Source of the DNA: Actinomycetes bacterium
GTDB lineage: Bacteria > Actinomycetota > Actinomycetes > Prado026
Assembly: GCA_025455945.1 (NCBI GenBank)
Contig: JALOLN010000002.1
Span: 1-34,799, forward strand
Direction: 5' to 3'
Length of the DNA stretch: 34,799 nucleotides
The position numbers were made by a program, and so were the translations under genes. Shown here in pieces: positions 9-11,340 of this stretch. Numbering within the stretch: the first letter of the stretch is position 1; each line of letters starts with the position of its first letter. The notes under the pieces are model-generated. The model was given only the letters and a program-made list of their open reading frames with translations, ran no database searches and was not told the origin of the DNA.

Positions 9-1370
9 TCACATGGAGGCGATGAGCTTGTCGACGCGGTCGTCGACGGCCCGGAACGGGTCCTTGCACAGGACCGTGCGCTGCGCCTGGTCGTTGAGCT
101 TCAGGTGCACCCAGTCGACGGTGAAGTCGCGGCGGCGCTCCTGGGCGCGGCGGATGAACTCCCCGCGCAGTCGGGCGCGGGTCGTCTGCGGCGGCACGGT
201 CTTGGCGCGGAACACCTCCATGTCACGGGTCACCCGCTCCACCTGGCCGTGCCGCTCGAGGAGGTAGTACAGCCCGCGCCGGCGGTTGACGTCGTGGTAG
301 GCGAGGTCCAGCTGGGCGATCCGCGGCGACGACAGCGCCAGGTCGTGCTTGTCCTGGTACCGCTCCACCAGCCGCAGCTTGATCACCCAGTCGATCTCCC
401 GGCCGACGAGGGAGAGGTCGCCGGTCTCGACGGCCCGCAGGGTGCGCTCCCACAGGTCCAGCACCCGGTGCACGGTCGGGTCGTCCAGGCCGCGGCGGGT
501 GACGAAGTCGCGGGCCTTCGAGCAGTACTCGCTCTGGATCTCCAGGGCGGAGACCTCCCGCCCGTTGGCCAGCCGGATGCGCCGACGTCCGGTGGGGTCG
601 TGGCTGATCTCGCGGATGGCCCGGATCGGGTTCTCCAGGGTGAGGTCGCGCATGACGACGCCCTGCTCGACCATGCGCAGCACCAGGTCGGCGCTGCCCA
701 CCTTGAGCAGGGTGGTCGGCTCGGCCATCGTGGAGTCGCCGACGATGACGTGCAGCCGGCGGTAGCGCTCGGCGTCCGCGTGCGGCTCGTCACGGGTGTT
801 GATGATCGGCCGGCTGCGGGTCGTCGCGCTGGACACGCCCTCCCAGATGTGCTCGGCGCGCTGGCTGAGGCAGTAGACGGCCCCGCGGGGGGTCTGCAGC
901 ACCTTGCCCGCCCCGCACACCAGCTGCCGGGTGACGAGGAACGGGATGAGGACGTCGGACAGCCGGGTGAAGTCCCCGGACCGGCTGACCAGGTAGTTCT
1001 CGTGACAGCCGTAGGAGTTCCCCGCCGAGTCGGTGTTGTTCTTGAACAGGTACACGTCGCCGGGGATGCCCTCCTCGTGCAGCCGTCGCTCGGCGTCGAC
1101 GAGCAGCCCCTCGAGGATCCGCTCGCCGGCCCGGTCGTGGACGACCAGCTCGGTCAGCTCGTCGCACTCCGGCGTCGCGTACTCCGGGTGGCTGCCGACG
1201 TCGAGGTAGAGCCGGGCGCCGTTGCGGAGGAACACGTTGCTGCTGCGGCCCCAGGAGACGACGCGGCGGAACAGGTAGCGGGCCACCTCGTCCGGGGAGA
1301 GCCGGCGCTGCCCGCGGAACGTGCAGGTCACGCCGTACTCGGTCTCCAGCCCGAAGATGCGGCGGTCCAC
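9..1370 (-). CDS. pafA: Pup--protein ligase PafA
   Basis: 453-aa ORF with a GTG start 4 nt after the prcA stop. N-terminus [14 protein letters not shown] and the [13 protein letters not shown] motif fit the Pup ligase/deamidase family. It is the shorter of the two paralogues in the window (453 vs 506 aa), which fits PafA rather than Dop. Confidence 0.93.
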
Positions 1371-2134: not shown

Positions 2135-2977
2135 TCAGGGCAGCGGCACGGCAGAGGGGCCGTCGGGCCGGGCCATCCGGGCGGCCACCACCCGCTCGAC
2201 GAGAGCCCCGATCTCGTCGTCGGGCAGCCGGCGGTAGCCGTCCGGGCCGACCAGCGCGACGACCGGGAAGATCCGCCGGGCCAGATCGGGCCCGCCGGTC
2301 GCCGAGTCGTCGTCCGCGGCGTCGTACAGCGACTCCACGACCGCCGACACCGCCTGCTCCTGGTTCAGCTGGGGGCCGTAGAGCTTCTTCAGGGCCCCGC
2401 GGGCGAACATCGCCCCGGACCCGACGGCGTGGAAGGCGTGCTCCTCGTACCGGCCCCCGGTGACGTCGTAGGAGAAGATCCGGCCGGCCTCCTGCTCGAG
2501 GTCGAAGCCGGCGAACAGCGGCACCACGGCCAGGCCCTGCATGGCCAGGCCCAGGTTGGAGCGGATCAGGGTCGCCAGCCGGTTGGCCTTGCCGTCGAGG
2601 GACAGCGACGTCCCCTCGATCTTCTCGTAGTGCTCGAGCTCGACCTGGAACAGGCGCACCAGCTCGACCGCCAGGCCCGCCGTGCCGGCGATCCCGACCG
2701 CGGAGTACTCGTCGGCCGGGAAGACCTTCTCGATGTCCCGCTGGGCGATGACGTTGCCCATGGTCGCCCGCCGGTCGCCGGCCATGACGACCCCGCCGGA
2801 GAACGTGGCGGCCACGATGGTCGTCCCGTGCGGCGCCGCCACCGAACCGTCGGGCAGCGCCCGGCCCCCGGGCAGCAGCTCGGGGGCGTAGTCGTGCAGG
2901 AAGTCGGTGAACGAGGAGGTCCCCGGGGCCAGGAAGGCCGCCGGGAGCGCGCCGGAGCCCGGCCTGGGGTCGCTCAC
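2135..2977 (-). CDS. prcB: 20S proteasome beta subunit (51-aa propeptide, then catalytic Thr)
   Basis: The track ORF (389 aa) was trimmed to the GTG at 2977, which overlaps the pup stop (GTGA). The propeptide ends ...APHG|TTIVAATF, the conserved autoprocessing site that exposes Thr1. Confidence 0.9.
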
Positions 2978-3192
2978 TGGCCACCCTTCTGCACGAACGA
3001 CTTCACGAACTCCTCGGAGTTCTGCTCCAGCACCTCGTCGATCTCGTCGAGGATCGCGTCCACGTCGGCGTCGAGCTCCGCCTTGCGTTCGGCGACCGCC
3101 GCCGACGCCGCCGCCTCCGGGGCGTCCTCGGTCTGCTCGCCGCGCCGGGCGGCCCGCTCCTGGCCGCCGGTATCCCGGTCCCTGCTCGTCAC
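2974..3192 (-). CDS. pup: Prokaryotic ubiquitin-like protein Pup (C-terminal GGQ)
   Basis: 72 aa, acidic and low in complexity, ending ...FVQKGGQ. GTG start with GGAGA 9 nt upstream. The stop overlaps the prcB start. Confidence 0.95.
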
Positions 3193-3225
3193 GGTGGTCT
3201 CCGATCGTCCGGACGTACAGCACTG

Positions 3226-3231
3226 AACCTA
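3226..3231 (-). promoter_or_regulatory. Candidate -10 box (TAGGTT) for the pup-prcB-prcA-pafA unit
   Basis: The minus strand reads cgTATAGGTTcag in the most AT-rich part of the 206-bp divergent spacer. This would give a leader of about 27 nt containing the GGAGA SD. Sequence pattern only. Confidence 0.3.
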
Positions 3232-3337
3232 TACGTCGGCAGACCGCACGGCCCGCTGAGCAGGTCCGGGGGATTGCCTTGCACGGACCCGACGCGCCGC
3301 GCACCGGCTACCGAGCGTTACCGCCGCTGGCGCCGTG

Positions 3338-3381
3338 TTAGCACTCGGTTAGTGGTCGGCTGGAGCGCTCTTAGCCACTGG
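3338..3381. promoter_or_regulatory. Phased TTAG boxes / dyad upstream of the redox operon (candidate operator or promoter)
   Basis: TTAGCACTCGG (3338), TTAGTGGTCGG (3349) and TTAGCCACTGG (3371) start 11 and 22 bp apart. AGTGG (3351-3355) and CCACT (3375-3379) form a dyad. The region lies 18-60 bp upstream of ATG 3399. Confidence 0.25.
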
Positions 3382-3398
3382 GGCGCGACCGTGGCCCC

Positions 3399-3866
3399 AT
3401 GAGACCACCCGCACCGGGGCGGCCCCGCCGGCCGGGCCGCCGTCGCGACCGGGCCCTGCGGCTCGTCGACACCCTCACCGCCGGCGCGGTCGCCGGCGCG
3501 ATCATCGCCACCGGCGCCGTCGCGACCGCGTTCGCGGACGCCGCGGCGCCGGCTCCGGGACCTGGGACCGCCGACCCCGCGGCCCCCACCGGCCCGGCGT
3601 CGACGGCCCGCCCGGGCGCTCTCCTGGCACCGACCACGCCACCTGCCGCCGTGCCCAGCCCGACGCGGACGCCGGCCCGGCCGCGGGCTACGGCGCCGGC
3701 TGCCGCCACCCGCACCAGTGCCCCCCGGCCGGCGAAGACGGTGGCGAAGCCCGCGGCGAAGGCGCCCGCGAGCCCGCGGAGCACCGCGCCGAAGCCCGCG
3801 CCGCCGCCGCCGGCTCCCCCGCCTCCGCCGCCACCGCAGCCGAGCGCCTCGACGGGCGGGTCGTGA
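3399..3866 (+). CDS. Hypothetical Pro/Ala-rich exported or membrane-anchored protein (Arg-rich N-terminus, one hydrophobic helix, disordered tail)
   Basis: 155 aa with strong GC3 bias in this frame. The N-terminus GRRRDRALRLVDTLTAGAVAGAIIATGAVATAFA|DAA looks like a signal or Tat-like peptide. The rest is P/A-rich and ends ...SASTGGS. The stop overlaps the apbE start (GTGA). No SD or -10 box is recognisable at the start. Confidence 0.55.
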   Translation: MRPPAPGRPRRPGRRRDRALRLVDTLTAGAVAGAIIATGAVATAFADAAAPAPGPGTADPAAPTGPASTARPGALLAPTTPPAAVPSPTRTPARPRATAPAAATRTSAPRPAKTVAKPAAKAPASPRSTAPKPAPPPPAPPPPPPPQPSASTGGS

Positions 3867-4846
3867 TGCCCGTCGGGCAGGTCGTGGACGCCGAGGCAGA
3901 CGTCGAGGCGGCCGAGGAGTGGCCGCTGTGGGGGGGCACCGCCAGGGTGGTGGTCCGCGTCCCGCAGGCCGACGCCGCCCGCGCGGCCGCGGACCGGCAC
4001 ACCGCCGTCGCGTCCGTCCGGGCAGTCGTCGCCGCCGTGGACTCCGCGTGCAGCCGGTTCCGTCCCGACTCCGAGGTGGTCCGGCTCGGCCGCGCCCGGG
4101 GGCGCGCGGTGCCGGTCTCGCCGGTGCTGGCCGACGCGGTCGCCGCGGCGCTGCGCGCGGCCAGGGTCACCGACGGCGCTGTCGACCCCACGATCGGCGC
4201 CGCGATGGTCGCCGCCGGATACGACCGCGACCTGGCCGTCCTGCCGCCGGACCGGCCGGCCGGGCTGGTCGCGGCCCGACGCCGGGCGGACTGGCGGGAC
4301 GTCTGTCTCGACCGGACCGCGGGGACGCTGCGGGTGCCCGACGGCGTCGTCCTGGACCTAGGCGCCACCGCCAAGGCCTGGGCCGCCGACCGCGCGGCCG
4401 CGGCGGCGCACGCCGCCACCGGCCGGCCCGTGCTGGTCGGCCTGTGCGGCGACCTGGCAGCCACCGGCACCCACTCGGGGACGCCATGGGTGGTCGGGGT
4501 GCGCGAGCGGCCGGAGGACGCCGACACGGCGTTGGTCGCCGTCGAGGACGGCGGGCTGGCGACGTCGACGACGAGATCCCGGCGCTGGCGGATGGCCGGC
4601 CGCCCGGTCCACCACCTGCTCGACCCGGTCACGGGCCTGCCGGTGCGCGAGGTGTGGCGGAGCGTCACGGTGGCCGCCGCCAGCTGCCTCGACGCGAACA
4701 CGGCGTCCACTGCCACGGTGGTCAAGGGCCCGGCCGGGGCCGGGTGGCTGGCGGCCACCGGGCTGCCCGCCCGGCTGGTCTCCGCCGACGGCAGGGTCGA
4801 GCTGCTCGGCGGCTGGCCCGCTGACGCCCAGGACCGGGTCGCATGA
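3863..4846 (+). CDS. apbE: FAD:protein FMN transferase (ApbE family), no signal peptide or lipobox
   Basis: 327 aa. ApbE-like blocks are present: VLDLGATAKAWAAD, LVGLCGDLA, GLATSTT..RRW, VHHLLDPVTGLP and SVTVAAASCLDANTAST. Start is GTG 3863 or ATG 3866. The N-terminus MMPVGQVVDAEADVEAAEE is acidic, not a signal peptide. Confidence 0.82.
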   Translation: MMPVGQVVDAEADVEAAEEWPLWGGTARVVVRVPQADAARAAADRHTAVASVRAVVAAVDSACSRFRPDSEVVRLGRARGRAVPVSPVLADAVAAALRAARVTDGAVDPTIGAAMVAAGYDRDLAVLPPDRPAGLVAARRRADWRDVCLDRTAGTLRVPDGVVLDLGATAKAWAADRAAAAAHAATGRPVLVGLCGDLAATGTHSGTPWVVGVRERPEDADTALVAVEDGGLATSTTRSRRWRMAGRPVHHLLDPVTGLPVREVWRSVTVAAASCLDANTASTATVVKGPAGAGWLAATGLPARLVSADGRVELLGGWPADAQDRVA

Positions 4847-5625
4847 GCGCCGGCGGGCCCAGCGCCCTGTTCGAGCTGTCGCTGGATCCGAAGCTCGCGT
4901 GGTACCTCACCCGGGCCAGCGGTCTGGTGCTGCTCGTCCTGCTCACGGTCGCCGTGCTCCTGGGCGTCGGCAGCCGACTGGGGGCGGCAGGCGGGCGGGT
5001 GCCGCGGTTCGTGGCCACGGACCTGCACCGGCGGATCAGTCTGCTCGCCACGGCCTTCCTCGGCCTGCACATCGCGACGTCGATTGCCGACAGCTGGGCG
5101 ACCATCACCTGGCTGGATGCGGTGGTCCCGTTCGTGGGCAGCTATCGACCGGTCTGGCTGGGCCTCGGCACGCTCGCCGTGGACCTGCTGCTGGCCGTCG
5201 TGGTGACCAGCCTGCTGCGCCACCGGCTCGGGCCGCGGTCCTGGCGAGCGGTCCACCTGCTCGCCTATGCCGCCTGGCCGGTCGCCGTCCTGCACGGGCT
5301 GGGCACCGGCTCGGACACCCAGCGGTCGTGGGTGCTCGTCCTCACCCTCGGCTGCGTCGGCGCCGTGCTGCTCGCGCTCGGCCGCCGCCTCCTTCCCCTC
5401 CCCCTCCCCCCTCATGCGCATCATGGGTCCCTTGAGGCGAATAGACCGCGTTCTCGCGCCCTTCACGGCGGGCTCGGGCGGGGCATGCGCTGGCTCGTCG
5501 CCGTCGTCGTGCTGCCGCTGGTCCCACTCGCCCTGGCTGCCTGGGCGCTTGACGGCCCGCTCGCCCCGGGGTGGGGCCAGCGCGCGGGGACACCGCCCCC
5601 GCCCGCGGCCGGGAGCGCGCCATGA
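4843..5625 (+). CDS. Ferric-reductase-like (FRD/MsrQ/NOX-type) di-haem transmembrane protein
   Basis: 260 aa and polytopic. It has two His pairs with NOX-type spacing: DLH-x13-H (HRRISLLATAFLGLH) and H-x12-H (HLLAYAAWPVAVLH). ATGA overlap with the apbE stop. Confidence 0.78.
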   Translation: MSAGGPSALFELSLDPKLAWYLTRASGLVLLVLLTVAVLLGVGSRLGAAGGRVPRFVATDLHRRISLLATAFLGLHIATSIADSWATITWLDAVVPFVGSYRPVWLGLGTLAVDLLLAVVVTSLLRHRLGPRSWRAVHLLAYAAWPVAVLHGLGTGSDTQRSWVLVLTLGCVGAVLLALGRRLLPLPLPPHAHHGSLEANRPRSRALHGGLGRGMRWLVAVVVLPLVPLALAAWALDGPLAPGWGQRAGTPPPPAAGSAP

Positions 5626-6992
5626 GCGTCCGGCCGGCCGAGCGGTCGCCGGCCGATGAGCGGGCGGTGGCGCCGTCGGTCCCGGGGCCCGGGCGGGTGC
5701 TACGCGGGCTGCGGGCGGACGGCGCCGCGCTGACCCTGGCCGAGCACCTGCGGGTGCACGGGCCGCTCATCGACCATGGCGGGCACCGGCGCGGCGAGCA
5801 CGCCGTCGTCGGGCTGGCCGAGGCGGCGGGCCTACGTGGCCGTGGTGGCGGCGGCTTCCCGCTGGCCGACAAGCTGCGCACGGTCGTGGGTGCGGCGGGC
5901 CACACCCGCCGTCCGGTCGTCGTCGTCAACGCGGCCGAGAGCGAGCCGGCGTCGCGCAAGGACGCCGTGCTGCTGACCCGGACACCGCACCTGGTGCTCG
6001 ACGGCGCCGCTCTCGCCGCGGCGGCGGTGGGCGCCAGGGACGTCGTCGTCTGGCTGCACCGCGGTGACGTCGCAGGCGCGCGGGCGGCACGGGCCGCGGT
6101 CGGGGAACGTGCAGCGACCGGCGTCCTCGGCGTCCGGCACCGGGTCGTGGAGGGTCCGCCGCGCTACGTCGCCGGTGAGGCCTCAGCCATCGCGGCACAC
6201 CTGTCGGGCGGCCCGGCGCGGCCGCGGGTCACCCCGCCCCGGGTCGCGCAGCGCGGGGTGCACGGCCGCCCGACGCTGGTCTCCAATGCCGAGACGCTGG
6301 CCCACCTCGCCCTCGTGGCGCGGCACGGCCCTGGCTGGTTCCGCGCGCTCGGCACCCCGGAGGAGCCGGGCACGACGCTGGTCACGGTGCTCGGCGCGGT
6401 CGGCGTGCCGGGCGTCGTCGAGGTGCCGGTGGGCACCCCGCTGGGCGCCGTGCTGGCCCCGACCGGAGGTCCCCCACCAGTCGGTGGCGCTGTGCTGGTC
6501 GGCGGGTACGCCGGCACCTGGCTGCCCGCTGACCGGGCGCTGCCGCTGCCCTGGTCCCAGGCCGGGCTGGCCGCCGCCGGCGGCACCCCCGGGGTCGGGC
6601 TGGTCGCCGTGCTGCCGGCGGACGCCTGCCCGGTGGCCGAGACCGCCCGGCTGGTCGGCTGGCTGGCCGGCGAGGGCGCCCAGCAGTGCGGCCCCTGCCT
6701 CAACGGGCTGCCCGCACTGGCGGGGGCCTGCCGGGCCCTGGCGGCCGGTCCGGCGTCCGATGCCGCGGCGGCACCCGGGCTGTTGCACCGCTGGGCCGGC
6801 ATGGTCGAGGGCCGCGGAGCCTGCCACCACCCGGATGGCGTCGCCGGGCTGGTCCGCTCCCTGCTCGCGGCGTTCCCCGATGAGGTCGCCCGGCACGCCG
6901 CCGGGCGGCCCTGCCCGGCCGCGGCGGTCACCGCGACGCGCTCGGTGCTGCCGCTGCCGCCGCCCGAGCCGGGGGGGCCGGCATGGCGCTGA
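5622..6992 (+). CDS. NuoF-like (complex I 51-kDa-type) NAD(P)H/FMN and Fe-S domain protein
   Basis: 456 aa counted from ATG 5622 (ATGA overlap with the upstream stop). It carries the glycine-rich loop GLRGRGGGGFPLADKL and a C-terminal Cys region QQCGPCLNG...GACRAL...GRGACHHPDG. Confidence 0.78.
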   Translation: MSVRPAERSPADERAVAPSVPGPGRVLRGLRADGAALTLAEHLRVHGPLIDHGGHRRGEHAVVGLAEAAGLRGRGGGGFPLADKLRTVVGAAGHTRRPVVVVNAAESEPASRKDAVLLTRTPHLVLDGAALAAAAVGARDVVVWLHRGDVAGARAARAAVGERAATGVLGVRHRVVEGPPRYVAGEASAIAAHLSGGPARPRVTPPRVAQRGVHGRPTLVSNAETLAHLALVARHGPGWFRALGTPEEPGTTLVTVLGAVGVPGVVEVPVGTPLGAVLAPTGGPPPVGGAVLVGGYAGTWLPADRALPLPWSQAGLAAAGGTPGVGLVAVLPADACPVAETARLVGWLAGEGAQQCGPCLNGLPALAGACRALAAGPASDAAAAPGLLHRWAGMVEGRGACHHPDGVAGLVRSLLAAFPDEVARHAAGRPCPAAAVTATRSVLPLPPPEPGGPAWR

Positions 6993-7210
6993 CCCGGGAG
7001 CAGCGGGAGGAGGACGGCGTCGTCCTCGCGGTCGACTGGACCCGCTGCAAGGGCCACGGTCTGTGCGCGGAGCTGCTCCCCGAGGACCTCGACCTCGACG
7101 ACTGGGGCTTTCCGATCGTCGCGGGCCGTGTCCCGCAGCGGCGCGTGCACCTGGCCGAGCGGGCCAGCGCCGCGTGCCCGGTCATGGCGCTGCGCCTGCG
7201 CCCCGCCTGA
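6983..7210 (+). CDS. Small single-cluster ferredoxin (CxxHxxC...CP, 3Fe-4S type)
   Basis: 75 aa with DWTRCKGHGLCAELLPE ... AACPVMA. The start overlaps the NuoF-like stop by 10 nt. Confidence 0.78.
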   Translation: MALTREQREEDGVVLAVDWTRCKGHGLCAELLPEDLDLDDWGFPIVAGRVPQRRVHLAERASAACPVMALRLRPA

Positions 7211-7216
7211 TGGCCG

Positions 7217-8737
7217 TCAGGCGGGGGGGCCGGTGAGCCGGTCGACGAGGTCGGCCGCGGTGGCGCAGCGATCGAGGAGCACCCCGACGTGCGCCCGGGT
7301 ACCGCGCAGCGGCTCGAGGGTGGGGACCCGCTGCAGCGCGGACCGGCCCGGCAGGTCGAAGATCACCGAGTCCCAGGAGGCAGCGGCCACGTGGGCGGCG
7401 TACCGGCGCAGGCACTCCCCCCGGAAGTACGCGCGGGTGTCCTGCGGCGGGGTGCCGACGGCGGTCCGGACCTCGGCCTCGGTCGTGATCCGCTCGATCC
7501 TGCCCCGGGCGACCAGCCGGTGGTACAGCCCCTTCTCCGGCCGGACGTCGGAGTACTGCAGGTCGACGGCCTGCAGCCGCGCGGAGTCCCAGTCCAGGCC
7601 GTCGCGGTCCCGGTAGGCCTGCAGCAGCTCGAGCTTGGCCACCCAGTCCAGCTCGCGGGACAGGCTCATCGGGTCGGTGGCCAGCCGGGTGAGCACCGAC
7701 TCCCAGCGGTCCAGGACGTCGGTGGTCTCGGCGTCCACGTCGGAGCCGAGGCGGTCCTCGACGTACTTACGGGCCTGCTCGAGGTACTCCATCTGCACCT
7801 GGACGCCGGTGAGCTGCCGGCCGTCCTTGAGCCGGACCAGGTGCCGCAGGCCGGGGTCGTGGGAGACCGCGTGCAGCTCGGCGACCGGTCGCCCGAGGGC
7901 GAGGTCGACGCCCTCCAGCCAGCCGTCCTCGATCATCGCGAGCACCAGGGACGTCGTGCCCAGCTTGAGGTAGGTGGACACCTCGGCGAGGTTGGCGTCG
8001 CCGATGATGACGTGCAGCCGCCGGTACTGGGTGGCGTCCGCGTGCGGCTCGTCGCGGGTGTTGATGATCGGCCGCTTCAGGGTCGTCTCCAGGCCCACCT
8101 CGACCTCGAAGAAGTCGGCCCGCTGGCTGATCTGGAAGCCGTGCCCGCTGCCGTCCTGCCCGATCCCGACCCGGCCGGAGCCGCAGACGACCTGGCGGGT
8201 CACGAGGAACGGGGTGAGGTGCCGCACGATGTCGGTGAAGGCGGTCGAGCGGCGCATGAGGTAGTTCTCGTGCGTGCCGTACGAGGCGCCCTTGTTGTCG
8301 GTGTTGTTCTTGTACAGCGTGATCGTCGCCGGCTGGGGCAGCTGTCGGGCCAGCTCCGCCGCCCGGGCCATGACCCGCTCCCCGGCGACGTCCCAGACCA
8401 CCGCTGCCCGGGGCCCGGTCACCTCCGGCGAGGAGTACTCCGGGTGCGCGTGGTCGACGTACAGCCGGGCGCCGTTGGTGAGGATGACGTTGGCCAGCCC
8501 CAGGTCCTCGTCGGTGAGCTGGCTGGGGTCGGCGAGGTCGCGGGAGAGGTCGAAGCCGCGGGCGTCCCGCAGCGGGTTCTCCTCCTCGAAGTCCCACCGC
8601 GGTCGACGGGTGGCCAGCTCGCCGTGGGCGTAGGCGTTGACGACCTGAGACGACGCCAGCATGGCGTTCGCCCCGGGCTGCCCGGGCACCGAGATGCCGT
8701 ACTCCGTCTCGATGCCCATGACGCGGCGCACGCTCAT
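7217..8737 (-). CDS. dop: Pup deamidase/depupylase Dop
   Basis: 506 aa with [19 protein letters not shown]... and [14 protein letters not shown]. It is the longer paralogue of pafA and lies just downstream of arc. Pup ends in Gln, so a deamidase is required. Confidence 0.93.
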
Positions 8738-8783: not shown

Positions 8784-10451
8784 CTACAGGTACTGGCCGG
8801 TGTTGGCGACGGTGTCGATCGACCGGCCCGCCTCGGTGCCCTTCTTGCCCTGGACCAGGGTGCGGATGAAGACGATCCGCTCGCCCTTCTTGCCGGAGAT
8901 CCGCGCCCAGTCGTCGGGGTTGGTCGTGTTCGGCAGGTCCTCGTTCTCCTTGAACTCGTCGAGGCAGGCGTCGAGCAGGTGGGACACGCGGATCCCCCGC
9001 TGGCCGCGGTCGAGGAAGTCCTTGATGGCCATCTTCTTGGCCCGCGAGACGATGTTCTCGATCATCGCCCCGGAGTTGAAGTCCTTGAAGTAGAGGATCT
9101 CCTTGTCCCCGCCGGCGTACGTCACCTCGAGGAACTGGTTCTCCTCGGACTCGGCGTACATCGTCTCCACGGCGCGCTGGATCATCGCCGTCACGGTGGC
9201 CTCCGGCGACCCGCCGTGCTCGGCGACGTCGTCGGCGTGCAGGGGGAGGTCCGGCAGGAGGTACTTGGAGAAGATGTCCCGGGCCGCCTCGGCGTCCGGC
9301 CGCTCGATCTTGATCTTCACGTCGAGGCGGCCGGGCCGCAGGATCGCCGGGTCGATCATGTCCTCGCGGTTGGACGCACCGATGACGATGACGTTCTCGA
9401 GGCCCTCGACGCCGTCGATCTCGCTGAGCAGCTGCGGCACGATCGTGTTCTCGACGTCGGAGGAGACGCCCGACCCGCGGGTACGGAACAGCGAGTCCAT
9501 CTCGTCGAAGAACACGATCACCGGGTTGCCCTCGGTGGCCTTCTCCCGGGCCCGCTGGAACACCAGCCGGATGTGCCGCTCGGTCTCACCGACGTACTTG
9601 TTGAGCAGCTCGGGGCCCTTGATGTTGAGGAAGAAGGACCGGCCCTCCTTCTGGCCGCTGCGCTCGGCGACCTTCTTGGCCAGCGAGTTCGCCACGGCCT
9701 TCGCGATCAGTGTCTTGCCGCAGCCGGGCGGGCCGTAGAGCAGGATCCCCTTCGGGGGGGCCAGCCGGTGCTCGCGGAACAGGTCGGGGTGCAGGTACGG
9801 CAGCTCGACCGCGTCGCGGATCTGCTCGATCTGTGAGGCGAGCCCGCCGATCCCGGTGTAGTCGATGTCCGGGACCTCCTCGAGCACCAGCTCCTCGACC
9901 TCGGACTTGGGGATCCGCTCGTACACGTACCCCGAGCGGGTCTCCAGCAGCAGCGAGTCGCCGGCCCGCAGCGGGGAGTCGGCCAGGGTGTCGGCGAGGC
10001 GGACCACGCGCTCCTCGTCGGCGTGCCCGATGACGAGGGCGCGCTCGCCGTCCTCGAGCACCTCCTTGAACATCACGACCTCGCCGACCCGCTCGAAGCC
10101 GAGCGCTGCGATCACGTTGAGCGCCTCGTTGAGCATGACCTCCTGGCCGCGGCGCAGCGCCTCGACGTCGAGGTCCGGGCTGACCGCGACCCGCAGCTTG
10201 CGGCCACCGGTGAAGATGTCCACGGAGTCGTCGTCGTGGCGCTCCAGGAAGACCCCGAAGCCGGACGGCGGCTGCGCCAGCCGGTCGATCTCCTCGCGCA
10301 GCGCCACGAGCTGGTCACGCGCCTCGCGCAAGGTGGCGGCGAGCCGCTGGTTCTGCCCGGTGACCGCAGCGAGCTCGGCCTCACGCGCGGCCAGGCGCTC
10401 CTGAAGGGCGCGCAGCTGCGCGGCCCGGCTCTCCTCGTCGTACGCCGTCAT
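8784..10451 (-). CDS. arc: Proteasome-associated AAA+ ATPase ARC/Mpa
   Basis: 555 aa counted from ATG 10451, preceded by AGGAGG; the track ORF starts 24 codons earlier. It has an N-terminal coiled coil, Walker A GPPGCGKT and the C-terminal docking tail ...NTGQYL. Confidence 0.95.
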
Positions 10452-10483
10452 GCTGCCACCTCCTGCGGGTGCGACGGATTCGA

Positions 10484-10489
10484 CCCTAC
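10484..10489 (-). promoter_or_regulatory. Candidate -10 box (TAGGGT) for arc
   Basis: The minus strand reads gGGTAGGGTCgaat. It would give a leader of about 26 nt that includes the AGGAGG SD. Confidence 0.3.
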
Positions 10490-10581
10490 CCGCGCCGTCG
10501 CAGATCGCTACTCCGATGCGCACTTGTGTCGGCAGAAGTGGACGCCGACCCGAGCAGCACGGGGTGAGCAGTCGCCGCAGG

Positions 10582-10593: not shown

Positions 10594-11340
10594 GTGCGCG
10601 CGCTGCTCGGCCGGGGGCTGGACGCCGAGCTGCCCGATCCGCTGGCGCCGCCGCCGGGCGCGGCGCCGTGGGAGCTCGCGGTCCTGGCGCTGGTGGTCGG
10701 GGCCAACCTCGGCCAGAACCGGGTCTTCCCGGACGCGTGGCACCTGCTGACCGGCCCGCTGCTCGCTCTGGGGGCGGTCCTCCTGGCCCGGCGGTCAGGA
10801 GCGTCCTGGGCCCTGCTGGGGCTCTCCTCGGATCGCGTCGGGACCGGGGTGCGCCTGGGCGCCGCGGCGCTGGGCGTCGTGGCCGCGGTCGTGCTCGCGG
10901 CGGCCCTGGTGCCCGGGCTGCGGGACGCCTTCGCCGACGACCGAGTGGTGGACGCCGCCACGGCCACCGTGCTCTACGAGGCCCTCGTCCGGGTCCCGAT
11001 CGCCACCGCGCTGACCGAGGAGGTGCTGTTCCGCGGCGTGGGCCACGGCCTGCTCGCCCGCCGCTTCGGCGCCGGCCGGGCGACCCTCCTTGGCGCCGTC
11101 GCCTTCGGGTGCTGGCACGTGCTCCCGACACTGGCCTCCGCCCGCGGCAACGCCGTCACCGAGCAGGCCACCGGCCTGGCACTCGTCGGTGTGGTCGCCG
11201 GTGTCGTCCTGGCCACCACGGTGGCCGGGCTGCTGTTCACCTGGCTGCGCCGCCGCAGCGGCAGCGTCGTGGCGCCCTGGCTGGCCCACGTGGGCACCAA
11301 CTCGGTGACCCTGCTCGTCGCGCTGTCCGTCGCCGGCTGA
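10594..11340 (+). CDS. CPBP family intramembrane glutamic endopeptidase (CAAX/Abi type)
   Basis: 248 aa and polytopic. Motifs are TEEVLFRG (EExxxR), FGCWH and a late H (AHVGTN). Confidence 0.8.
   Translation: MRALLGRGLDAELPDPLAPPPGAAPWELAVLALVVGANLGQNRVFPDAWHLLTGPLLALGAVLLARRSGASWALLGLSSDRVGTGVRLGAAALGVVAAVVLAAALVPGLRDAFADDRVVDAATATVLYEALVRVPIATALTEEVLFRGVGHGLLARRFGAGRATLLGAVAFGCWHVLPTLASARGNAVTEQATGLALVGVVAGVVLATTVAGLLFTWLRRRSGSVVAPWLAHVGTNSVTLLVALSVAG

Follow-up and report, generated by a model that had tools for sequence, protein, structure and literature searches.

A conserved five-gene module of Actinomycetota and Dormibacterota that links a cytoplasmic ApbE to a domain-less candidate substrate and a putative outward electron-transfer chain

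Introduction

Flavinylation by ApbE is now regarded as one of the main routes by which electrons are transferred outside the bacterial cytosol. To our knowledge, the known ApbE substrates are all folded domains, and the ApbEs that serve extracytosolic targets are exported. Here, a five-gene cassette is described from an Actinomycetes bacterium (assembly GCA_025455945.1, contig JALOLN010000002.1), in which an ApbE devoid of signal peptide is coupled to a small, previously unannotated protein, named here ORF1 (open reading frame 1), and followed by a ferric-reductase-domain (FRD) membrane protein, a NuoF-like flavo-iron-sulfur protein and a ferredoxin. The cassette occupies positions 3399-7210 of the window, by which is meant the whole 34,799-nucleotide stretch of the contig that was analysed. 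Its products may form a path by which NAD(P)H in the cytoplasm reduces a flavin exposed beyond the membrane, a reading for and against which the evidence is evenly balanced, with ORF1 as the probable bearer of that flavin.

Among described systems, the cassette is most readily set beside the 'MsrQ-like' flavinylation clusters of Méheust et al. 2021 (PMC8238504), which are mostly actinobacterial, and 31 of which include a NuoF-like PF10589 protein, with NAD(P)H proposed as the cytosolic donor. As in those clusters (PMC8238504, PMC11334425), apbE accompanies a PF01794 di-haem protein in a putative path from NAD(P)H to an extracytosolic flavin. An MsrQ-like cluster was defined by the proximity of a PF01794 gene to apbE or FMN_bind (five genes at most), and in the cassette apbE lies directly upstream of the FRD gene. 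The published clusters were also selected for an export signal (signal peptide or lipobox) on ApbE or FMN_bind, and typically include an FMN_bind-domain substrate as well as an FRD that is fused to a PF00175 NAD-binding domain, whereas here the ApbE has no signal, FMN_bind, DUF2271 and DUF3570 are absent, and no NAD-binding domain is fused to the FRD. The present cassette has instead a donor split between the NuoF-like protein and the ferredoxin, a domain-less peptide with a C-terminal motif, and frequent linkage to two-component systems. Because only clusters in which ApbE, FMN_bind, DUF2271 or DUF3570 had a predicted signal peptide or lipobox passed the published pipeline (PMC8238504), most cassettes of the present type would have been filtered out, and literature searches brought up no paper on this architecture.

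The FmnB/PplA/Ndh2/EetAB system of Listeria monocytogenes is similar in that an ApbE-family enzyme flavinylates a surface-tethered protein and electrons from NADH reach extracellular acceptors through a Gram-positive envelope. Unlike the ApbE described here, which is predicted to be cytoplasmic, FmnB acts outside the cell and needs export of flavin adenine dinucleotide (FAD) (PMC9973259); in addition, PplA has folded FMN_bind domains and a lipid anchor, and the membrane step proceeds via the quinone pool and not a di-haem FRD. Signal-less ApbEs are shared with the cytosolic ApbE systems (Klebsiella pneumoniae fumarate reductase, FMN_red extensions and the seven-residue flavin-tag), in which the short motif can lie in an unstructured terminus. 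Their targets are folded flavoenzymes or engineered fusions, whereas ORF1 is without a folded domain, has a predicted membrane anchor or signal, and bears S-G-G-S at its very C-terminus.

A stand-alone FRD-family haem b membrane subunit is also found in MsrPQ (YedYZ), and a first-pass annotation of the window, made by a model from the sequence, had allowed that the cassette might prove to be a known system of this kind. No MsrP partner was found among the neighbours scanned, nor does any other molybdoenzyme occur among the ten recurrent neighbour families scanned against Pfam, the remaining families being Pup-locus genes or unscanned. Furthermore, MsrQ receives its electrons from quinol or Fre and not from a dedicated NuoF-like/ferredoxin pair. 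Judged by the defining sequence features of each, the module is not NuoF, NOX or MsrPQ.

A translationally coupled module

The five genes of the cassette are as follows.

3399-3866, plus strand: ORF1, 155 residues, candidate ApbE substrate with an anchor or signal region, a disordered tail and a C-terminal motif
3863-4846, plus strand: apbE, signal-less (predicted cytoplasmic) FAD:protein FMN transferase (FMN, flavin mononucleotide), PF02424
4843-5625, plus strand: FRD ('MsrQ-like') gene, six-helix ferric-reductase-domain membrane protein with two predicted haem sites, PF01794
5622-6992, plus strand: NuoF-like gene, soluble flavo-iron-sulfur protein and presumed NAD(P)H-oxidising entry point, PF01512 and PF10589
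6983-7210, plus strand: ferredoxin gene, small single-cluster ferredoxin, PF13459 Fer4_15

The first-pass annotation had chained five plus-strand frames by four start/stop overlaps, and reading of the junctions bore out each one: GTGA at 3863-3866 between ORF1 and apbE, where an in-frame ATG comes next at 3866; ATGA at 4843-4846 between apbE and the FRD gene, and again at 5622-5625 between the FRD and NuoF-like genes; and a 10-nucleotide overlap at 6983-6992, with the ferredoxin ATG at 6983 and the TGA of the upstream gene at 6990-6992. Its assignments of ApbE, FRD, NuoF-like and ferredoxin domains agreed equally well with hidden Markov model checks, in which all the models matched. Inside the cassette, scans that are weak at 78% G+C returned no Rfam family, promoter consensus or terminator consensus, which fits a single transcript. 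Long ORFs overlap the cassette on the other strand or in other frames (for example one of 209 residues at 3371-4000 on the minus strand, and one of 592 residues at 3688-5466); these were rejected as genes, being by-products of the 78% G+C with low third-position GC.

Relatives were collected by a scan of one genome per species, in which an alignment of the FRD membrane protein served as query and at least 580 species-level genomes were found to carry FRD relatives. Eighty loci were kept, from Thermoleophilia, Acidimicrobiia, Actinomycetes, Dormibacterota and one Chloroflexi metagenome-assembled genome (MAG), and the presence counts given below rest on the 66 related loci with complete flanks. 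The NuoF-like and ferredoxin genes both adjoin the FRD gene in 64 of these and apbE is adjacent in 54, while all five genes occur together in 47. ORF1 is present in 65 after manual checks, apparent absences being explained by frameshifted MAG sequence (L033, L066), a variant ending ..K-S-S-G-S (L065) or a more distant copy (Solirubrobacteraceae, described below). The NuoF-like protein has thousands of relatives, and the neighbourhoods of five of them, one in Streptomyces sp. HUAS TT20, have the same five-gene order. The module is distributed across hundreds of Actinomycetota species and the Dormibacterota, and, as far as gene order and overlap can tell, its five genes form one translationally coupled unit that is a real and conserved system.

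Gene fusions were considered as evidence of topology and set aside, as they arise from single-base frameshifts in long-read metagenome assemblies. An ApbE-FRD 'fusion' (L004:6331-8004) is resolved into separate genes by a short-read assembly of the same organism (L005), and in an ORF1-ApbE 'fusion' (L033:6610-8001), as in L066:7380-8000, the halves of ORF1 lie in different frames.

ORF1, a conserved peptide family

ORF1 had no Pfam or NCBIfam match, and the family member from Streptomyces, WP_263204702.1, is labelled 'hypothetical protein' by NCBI. Three regions can be distinguished in the protein from the window.

3432-3536, plus strand: residues 12-46, comprising an Arg-rich run (RRRDRALRLV) and, after it, a mildly hydrophobic segment of 19 residues, AGAVAGAIIATGAVATAFA, ending A-F-A
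3537-3848, plus strand: residues 47-150, a low-complexity tail composed to 78% of Pro, Ala, Ser and Thr (PAST) and to 31% of Pro, with no Cys and two bulky hydrophobic residues
3849-3863, plus strand: the C-terminal motif S-T-G-G-S followed by the stop, with the terminal Ser155 as the proposed site of FMN attachment

The N-terminal region follows the family consensus rRDrglRRlrr.Tr..aagAvAaTG.la..aAha.PG., which holds across classes and begins with an Arg-rich pattern, R-D-x-x-L-R-R-L-R-R-x-T-R. An Arg-Arg pair is found in 62 of 70 family members. The hydrophobic segment that follows (approximately 19 residues, median Kyte-Doolittle value 1.65) often precedes A-H-A-[F/L]-P-G-H, and in 60 of the 70 the net charge is +4 before it and +1 after it. 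In a test for a twin-arginine translocation (Tat) signal, the Arg-Arg pair, the weak hydrophobic region and the A-H-A or A-F-A site were all present; the pair, though, lies around seven residues from the hydrophobic region and has atypical flanking residues. By the simple heuristics with which Tat or general secretory (Sec) assignment and membrane topology were judged, residues 12-46 would be either an anchor in the membrane or a signal that can be cleaved off and may be of Tat type. The tail is similarly uniform in character across the family, spanning 50-130 residues with a median of 65% PAST, no Cys and almost no bulky hydrophobic residues, and leads to a C-terminus of the form [V/T]-[S/T]-G-[G/A]-S-stop.

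The association of this N-terminus with the C-terminal motif was recovered by a search that used the former alone. A profile of only the first 59 family residues, searched against 5.8 billion proteins, retrieved 91 small proteins, all 'hypothetical' and none with a precomputed Pfam domain; 78 of the 91 end in [ST]G[GA][ST], and most of the others are truncated. A full-length profile retrieved 1906 cluster representatives (50% identity) at E<=0.001 among 1.84 billion, and the best 150 matches included 144 proteins not retrieved before, 140 of which end in the motif. Over 132 sequences, positions -4 and -3 were Ser and Gly without exception (132/132 each), position -2 was Gly in 112, Ala in 17 and Ser in three, and position -1 was Ser in 128 and Thr in four, with Val, Pro, Gly, Ser or Ala rather than Asp at position -7. 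Residues 12-49 of ORF1 from the window align with the family profile at an hhalign probability of 90.8% (E 1.2e-6). Such endings are otherwise scarce, with only 76 of the 7851 six-frame ORFs of at least 50 residues in the loci terminating in [ST]G[GAS][ST], approximately 66 of which are ORF1 by position.

Since the motif immediately precedes apbE in most loci, it might simply reflect the overlapping start of apbE or its Shine-Dalgarno sequence. This was rejected on several grounds. Its codons vary synonymously, with all four Gly codons and four Ser codons in use, and it is kept where the FRD gene, and not apbE, follows ORF1. The G-rich codons, moreover, stand only two nucleotides from the start codon, and the motif persists across gaps of 40-140 nucleotides and, in Dormibacterota, ahead of a single additional residue (R or H). 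On this pattern of substitution the motif appears to be under selection at the protein level, and ORF1 constitutes, by sequence conservation, a real and previously unannotated protein family.

Two further observations concern ORF1. It fails a simple filter that compares GC content at third and second codon positions, because its Pro and Ala codons raise the latter. In a Solirubrobacteraceae group (L055:1846-2307; also L054, L073 and L079) 5.7 kb separate apbE from an upstream ORF1 homologue with the ending ..VVSGGS, the intervening DNA holding DprE1-like, short-chain dehydrogenase and UbiA-like genes, and a different small membrane protein with a weak match to DUF6232 directly precedes apbE.

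A cytoplasmic ApbE and its candidate target

The ApbE of the cassette matches PF02424 (E 1.9e-51; 175.6 bits against a cut-off of 25.6) and has PDB relatives at 2e-25 to 1e-12, comprising S. enterica 3pnd (2e-25), TM1553, T. pallidum Ftp and V. cholerae 6nxi. Its blocks DGAVDPT, DLGATAKAWAAD, LATS and HHLLDPVTGLP align with the S. enterica and T. maritima enzymes, the conserved forms across the PDB relatives being DGAvDPT, DLGAtAKawAaD, ATS and HHLLDPvTGlP. The first-pass annotation held that this ApbE has neither signal peptide nor lipobox, and closer reading upheld it: a stop lies just upstream of the start, some 20 hydrophilic residues come before the first strand, and homologues whose start is fixed by the ORF1 stop have no hydrophobic N-terminus. 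The enzyme is, by this predicted location, a cytoplasmic member of the cytosolic ApbE subclass, of which the Klebsiella fumarate reductase ApbE is a known example (PMC12052999).

ApbE places FMN on the last Ser/Thr of D-x-x-[S/T]-G-A-[S/T]; the core is [S/T]GA[S/T], seven residues are enough, replacement of Asp by Ala has a minor effect, and flavin tags perform best when terminal (PMC12052999). FMN_red proteins, too, are flavinylated by ApbE, on C-terminal extensions that are unstructured (PMC11334425). Against the core [S/T]-G-A-[S/T], the S-T-G-G-S of ORF1 ends in Ser and has Gly in place of Ala, as do most members of the family.

Other targets were sought close to the cassette. The first-pass annotation's failure to find an FMN_bind domain in the operon was borne out by Pfam searches of the cassette, and none is found in the top 120 FRD relatives. 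ORF1 itself matches no known substrate fold (FMN_bind, NqrB/RnfD, DUF2271, DUF3570, Flavodoxin_4 or FMN_red) in Pfam or NCBIfam, and D..[ST]GA[ST] gave only five scattered matches among 980 neighbouring proteins. A canonical substrate near apbE was accordingly rejected, there being none in the cassette, the neighbours or the top FRD relatives. Because its motif resembles the ApbE core, because no rival neighbour carries one, and because apbE is coupled to the ORF1 stop, with overlapping or coupled start and stop in most loci, ORF1 is probably the ApbE substrate, flavinylated on its terminal Ser. The description of this ApbE as an 'orphan' probably does not stand, as ORF1, the overlooked first gene, is the best candidate for its target.

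It is unlikely that ORF1 is not flavinylated, its motif serving instead for processing, FRD docking or wall attachment while ApbE modifies the FRD, the NuoF-like protein or a target encoded elsewhere. Such a role would suit a motif that is non-canonical, with GG and not GA and no Asp, and it would suit the ten of 66 complete loci that lack apbE, all of which still have ORF1, as well as the predicted separation of ApbE from the ORF1 tail by the membrane. The FRD even offers a possible site, as T155-G156-[S/T]157 is invariant next to an outer haem ligand, in a G-T-G-[S/T]-D loop after H151. That loop, however, departs from the core motif of four residues and would likewise face outward, and no other conserved neighbour has the motif. 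The direct succession of ORF1 and apbE, stop and start overlapping, in 54 of the 66 loci, the terminal position that is optimal for ApbE tags, and the precedent of unstructured C-terminal tails as proven substrates all argue for flavinylation of ORF1.

The predicted di-haem membrane protein

The FRD matches PF01794 (E 1.1e-6, 29.1 bits), as do most of its 120 closest relatives; the closest on record is a JGI sequence of 98% identity, and JGI labels such relatives 'YedZ'. The first-pass annotation had pointed to His pairs with the spacings H-x13-H and H-x12-H, and these proved to be sound: H62/H76 (x13) and H138/H151 (x12) are invariant in 62 homologues, and an AlphaFold2 model built with them (pLDDT 82.7, pTM 0.78, six long helices) places the pairs on helices 55-82 and 131-155. 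The best PDB folds in Foldseek were STEAP2, STEAP1, SpNOX, the csNOX5 membrane domain and DUOX1, with a probability of approximately 1.0 and TM-scores of 0.41-0.47.

The bis-haem core and the fold are thus shared with the NOX/FRE/STEAP families (7tai STEAP2, 8ucd STEAP1, 8qq7 SpNOX, 5o0t csNOX5). In contrast to these, the FRD has no fused FAD- or NAD(P)H-binding dehydrogenase domain, the chain ending 23 residues past helix 6 with PF01794 as sole match; it lacks the first NOX helix and has an extra C-terminal helix, and its donor would be the separate NuoF-like protein and ferredoxin. Arg-rich loops occur between helices 1-2, 3-4 and 5-6, and because those preceding the His helices match the cytosolic B and D loops of NOX, H62/H138 are assigned by homology to an inner haem site and H76/H151 to an outer one, with both termini predicted outside. 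The other invariant residues lie mostly in loops 2-3 and 4-5 and the C-terminus (D83-R102, G154-T155-G156-x-D158 and G-P-L-x-P-G-W..G-T-P), and, as they are predicted to face outward, may mark a docking site that is conserved on the outer face.

The top 120 FRD relatives fall into two length classes, of approximately 230 and 360-390 residues. About one third of the FRD homologues have an extra C-terminal domain of approximately 130-150 residues past helix 6 (for example L020:8640-9086; also L019, L025, L029, L031, L034, L041, L044, L047, L049, L051, L053, L059, L060, L062-L064, L066, L067, L069 and L076). This domain is predicted to lie outside, is probably β-rich to judge from its sequence, and has no significant Pfam match. 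In two Streptosporangiaceae FRDs (L064:8649-8800 and L063) the stretch linking helix 6 to the extra domain contains four to five repeats of (A/G)-S-S-G-G-T, each of which matches the ORF1-type [ST]GG[ST]; these could be extra flavinylation sites or a plain Gly/Ser linker.

The NuoF-like protein and the ferredoxin

The fourth protein matches PF01512 Complex1_51K (7e-31) and PF10589 NADH_4Fe-4S (4.5e-11), and its best PDB match is the NuoF of M. smegmatis (8e9g_F, 1.2e-44). With the NADH-input module of complex I (NuoF/Nqo1; HoxF, HydB, FdsB) it shares the Complex1_51K FMN/NADH site and the NADH_4Fe-4S domain. The motifs of that site, GLRGRGGGGFP together with N103, E106, E108, P109, K113 and D114, align with M. 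smegmatis NuoF and recur in 93% or more of 113 homologues. It differs from complex I NuoF in scoring 188.9 bits against the TIGR01959 equivalog, well below the cut-off of 558.65, in an altered Cys pattern, and in context, there being no NuoE and no nuo operon around the gene, which is flanked by the FRD and ferredoxin genes in the neighbourhoods inspected. Five Cys are invariant in the 113 homologues (C336, C356, C359, C401 and C431).

The ferredoxin matches PF13459 Fer4_15 (2e-12; 47.9 bits, cut-off 22.4), and its ligand pattern, read from the sequence, is C22-x2-H25-x2-C28 ... C65-P66, which we take to be typical of single-cluster (3Fe-4S type) actinobacterial ferredoxins. One homologue of 515 residues (P0023) is annotated as a single protein that joins NuoF-like domains to Fer4_15, a possible natural fusion supporting partnership of the two.

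Proposed mechanism and alternative explanations

In the scheme proposed here, the NuoF-like protein, bearing non-covalent FMN and one Fe-S cluster, would oxidise NAD(P)H and pass electrons to the small ferredoxin with its 3Fe-4S-type motif, from which they would enter the FRD at the inner haem (H62/H138) and leave it from the outer haem (H76/H151). The acceptor on the outer face would be FMN held covalently by the C-terminal Ser of ORF1, a protein pictured as an N-terminal anchor or signal, a flexible PAST tail of 50-130 residues and the terminal motif. The signal-less ApbE, translated in coupling with ORF1, would attach this FMN in the cytoplasm, where FAD is available, and flavin loading would precede export of ORF1, either via Tat or post-translationally via Sec. 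The flavin, tethered or released, would then pass electrons to an acceptor located in the envelope or beyond the cell, with Fe(III), quinone-like compounds, O2 and an envelope enzyme as candidates. A chain running from NAD(P)H through a flavo-FeS protein and a ferredoxin to a di-haem conduit had been drawn by the first-pass annotation and remains plausible; the likely substrate at its end had been missed.

With ApbE in the cytoplasm and the ORF1 tail predicted outside, the scheme requires flavinylation before export. Such an order is plausible from sequence features and general considerations: FAD is at hand in the cytoplasm, the Arg-Arg pair is nearly universal in the family, the hydrophobic core is weak, and an A-x-A-like site follows it. 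The Tat system can take small unfolded proteins of hydrophilic character, and bulky adducts on side chains are tolerated by SecYEG. As the peptide is so small, ORF1 would be exported after its translation is complete.

Several points weigh against this scheme. Foremost, ApbE is predicted to be cytoplasmic, while the tail of its putative substrate is placed outside by the positive-inside rule, so that a modified peptide would have to be exported, and the Arg-Arg region of ORF1 is not the textbook S/T-R-R-x-F-L-K, lying about seven residues from the hydrophobic core. The ORF1 motif departs from the canonical one in having no Asp and in substituting Gly for Ala in approximately 85% of members, and in ten of the 66 complete loci ORF1 is present while no apbE was found within 4.5 kb. 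For the FRD, the PF01794 score is marginal against a cut-off of 28 bits, the Foldseek E-values are weak (0.025-0.5), and the orientation is drawn from homology and charge bias only. In the NuoF-like protein the first Cys of the canonical N3 pattern, C-x2-C-x2-C...C, is replaced by Ala (..AQQCGPC..), and at the far end of the chain stand candidate acceptors only. Finally, neither MsrQ-like clusters nor the present variant have been characterised experimentally in the literature. The first-pass statement that no function is described for this combination holds to that extent, although MsrQ-like clusters with NuoF-like proteins had already been listed.

The difficulty of compartment would vanish if the flavinylated tail of ORF1 stayed inside as a swinging arm, its FMN shuttling electrons from the NuoF-like/ferredoxin pair to the inner haem of the FRD and so taking the part of the cytosolic FAD of NOX and STEAP or the Fre flavin of MsrQ, with the outer haem reducing an external acceptor directly. 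ApbE has no signal peptide in any locus, so that enzyme and substrate would share a compartment and no special export would be needed, and known cytosolic ApbEs do modify cytosolic targets. The inner haems of FRD-family proteins (NOX, STEAP, MsrQ-Fre) are normally fed by a flavin, and Ala/Pro-rich linkers are typical of the swinging arms of 2-oxoacid dehydrogenases. This arrangement, the chief alternative to the outward scheme, is nonetheless quite improbable. The charge bias around the hydrophobic segment of ORF1 predicts an N-in/C-out orientation, and the conserved A-H-A-x-P-G resembles a signal-peptidase site; tails rich in Pro, Thr, Ser and Ala are, moreover, typical of secreted actinobacterial proteins. 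A ferredoxin is already at hand as a one-electron donor to haem, and the invariant FRD residues other than His cluster on the predicted outer face.

If ORF1 is instead exported with its cofactor, as the outward scheme has it, the peptide could be described as a 'flavin on a string' and would stand for a new class of redox protein: disordered and fold-less, with FMN on its C-terminal Ser as sole functional group, it would be exported cofactor-loaded and, either as a Pro-rich tether of approximately 15-40 nm or as a released shuttle, would connect the outer haem to distant acceptors through the thick wall of actinobacteria. This fuller picture is put forward tentatively, with doubt somewhat outweighing confidence. 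If it is true, loading before export would explain extracytosolic covalent flavins in bacteria without an FAD exporter.

The module suggests a minimal, domain-less substrate that would define what ApbE must recognise, and a 'modify, then export' route that would spare the cell the export of FAD. It would give soil Actinomycetota (Streptomyces, Thermoleophilia and Acidimicrobiia), as well as Dormibacterota, a dedicated NAD(P)H-driven outward electron path, with bearing on iron acquisition, extracellular electron transfer and envelope redox stress, and the natural C-terminal tag of ORF1 could serve in flavin-tagging.

Genomic neighbourhoods and the Pup-proteasome locus

In the window, the cassette lies within a set of Pup-proteasome genes, all of them outside the module.

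9-1370, minus strand: pafA, with prcA and prcB (minus strand) between it and pup
2974-3192, minus strand: pup (PF05639, 3.8e-28, and TIGR03687)
3193-3398, no strand assigned: divergent intergenic region between pup and ORF1, presumed promoter region
7217-8737, minus strand: dop (TIGR03688, 1.7e-226, over its cut-off)
8784-10523, minus strand: mpa/arc, beyond dop

The first-pass annotation had stressed the position of the operon between dop and pup. This is true of the window, but it was not borne out as a property of the module, as most cassettes lie elsewhere, and only nine of 85 loci have this arrangement. In a tree of the NuoF-like protein, seven of eight sampled pup-locus cassettes fall in one clade, while the eighth (L006) is just outside and paired with a non-pup locus (L080), and the pup-locus cassettes sit at the base of the tree. 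Their grouping indicates that one ancestral insertion probably explains them, and the pup-dop position is the synteny of one clade. A functional link to the Pup-proteasome system, in which ORF1 would be a Pup-like disordered modifier (GGS against the GGQ of Pup) or the cassette would power or regulate pupylation, is highly improbable: it would account for the shared locus in the window and eight related loci and for the small size, disorder and near-terminal Gly-Gly that ORF1 has in common with Pup, but it is disfavoured by the tree, by the approximately 75 other loci that lie elsewhere (including those of Dormibacterota and the Chloroflexi MAG), by the predicted membrane anchor or signal of ORF1, by its final Ser, where PafA chemistry requires Gln or Glu, and by the location of the cassette on the opposite strand from pup and dop.

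A more general association is with two-component systems, which are neighbours in around half of approximately 82 loci, with an OmpR-type regulator in 31 and a HAMP/HisKA/HATPase kinase in 38. The pair lies directly beside the cassette, upstream on the same strand or divergent (for example L001:4754-6855 and L006:12452-14573). The Streptomyces sp. HUAS TT20 cassette likewise adjoins a response regulator/histidine kinase pair and is far from any pup gene. No OmpR/HAMP-kinase pair was found within the stretch of the window examined. A literature search for ApbE and ferric reductase together with the Pup-proteasome or with Streptomyces two-component systems found no papers.

Besides the response regulator and histidine kinase, recurrent neighbours include a cytochrome b561-like protein and an aldo-keto reductase. 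The former is a membrane protein of approximately 220-235 residues with conserved His that adjoins the cassette in 11 loci (L013:10175-10882, L059:6961-7626 and L025:2880-3569 among them); its match to cytochrome b561 PF01292 is weak (E 0.0015) and below the cut-off, and it may be a second haem protein tied to the system.

An Rfam scan of the intergenic region between pup and ORF1 returned no family, and specifically no FMN riboswitch, and no sigma-70-like consensus was found there. Immediately upstream of the pup start, at 3223-3241, is a block, CTGAACCTATACGTCGGCA (on the minus strand ..TATAGGTTCAG), that is kept in five of seven aligned intergenic regions of the pup-locus clade, and which may act as a promoter or operator, either shared or divergent.

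At the other end of the cassette, the stop codons of the ferredoxin gene (7208-7210) and of convergent dop (7217-7219) are separated by six nucleotides with no terminator-like hairpin, so that the two transcripts would overlap or end without an intrinsic terminator. Just beyond the Pup-proteasome genes, and divergent from mpa/arc, a gene at 10594-11340 encodes an Rce1-like CAAX-type intramembrane protease (PF02517, 1e-15).

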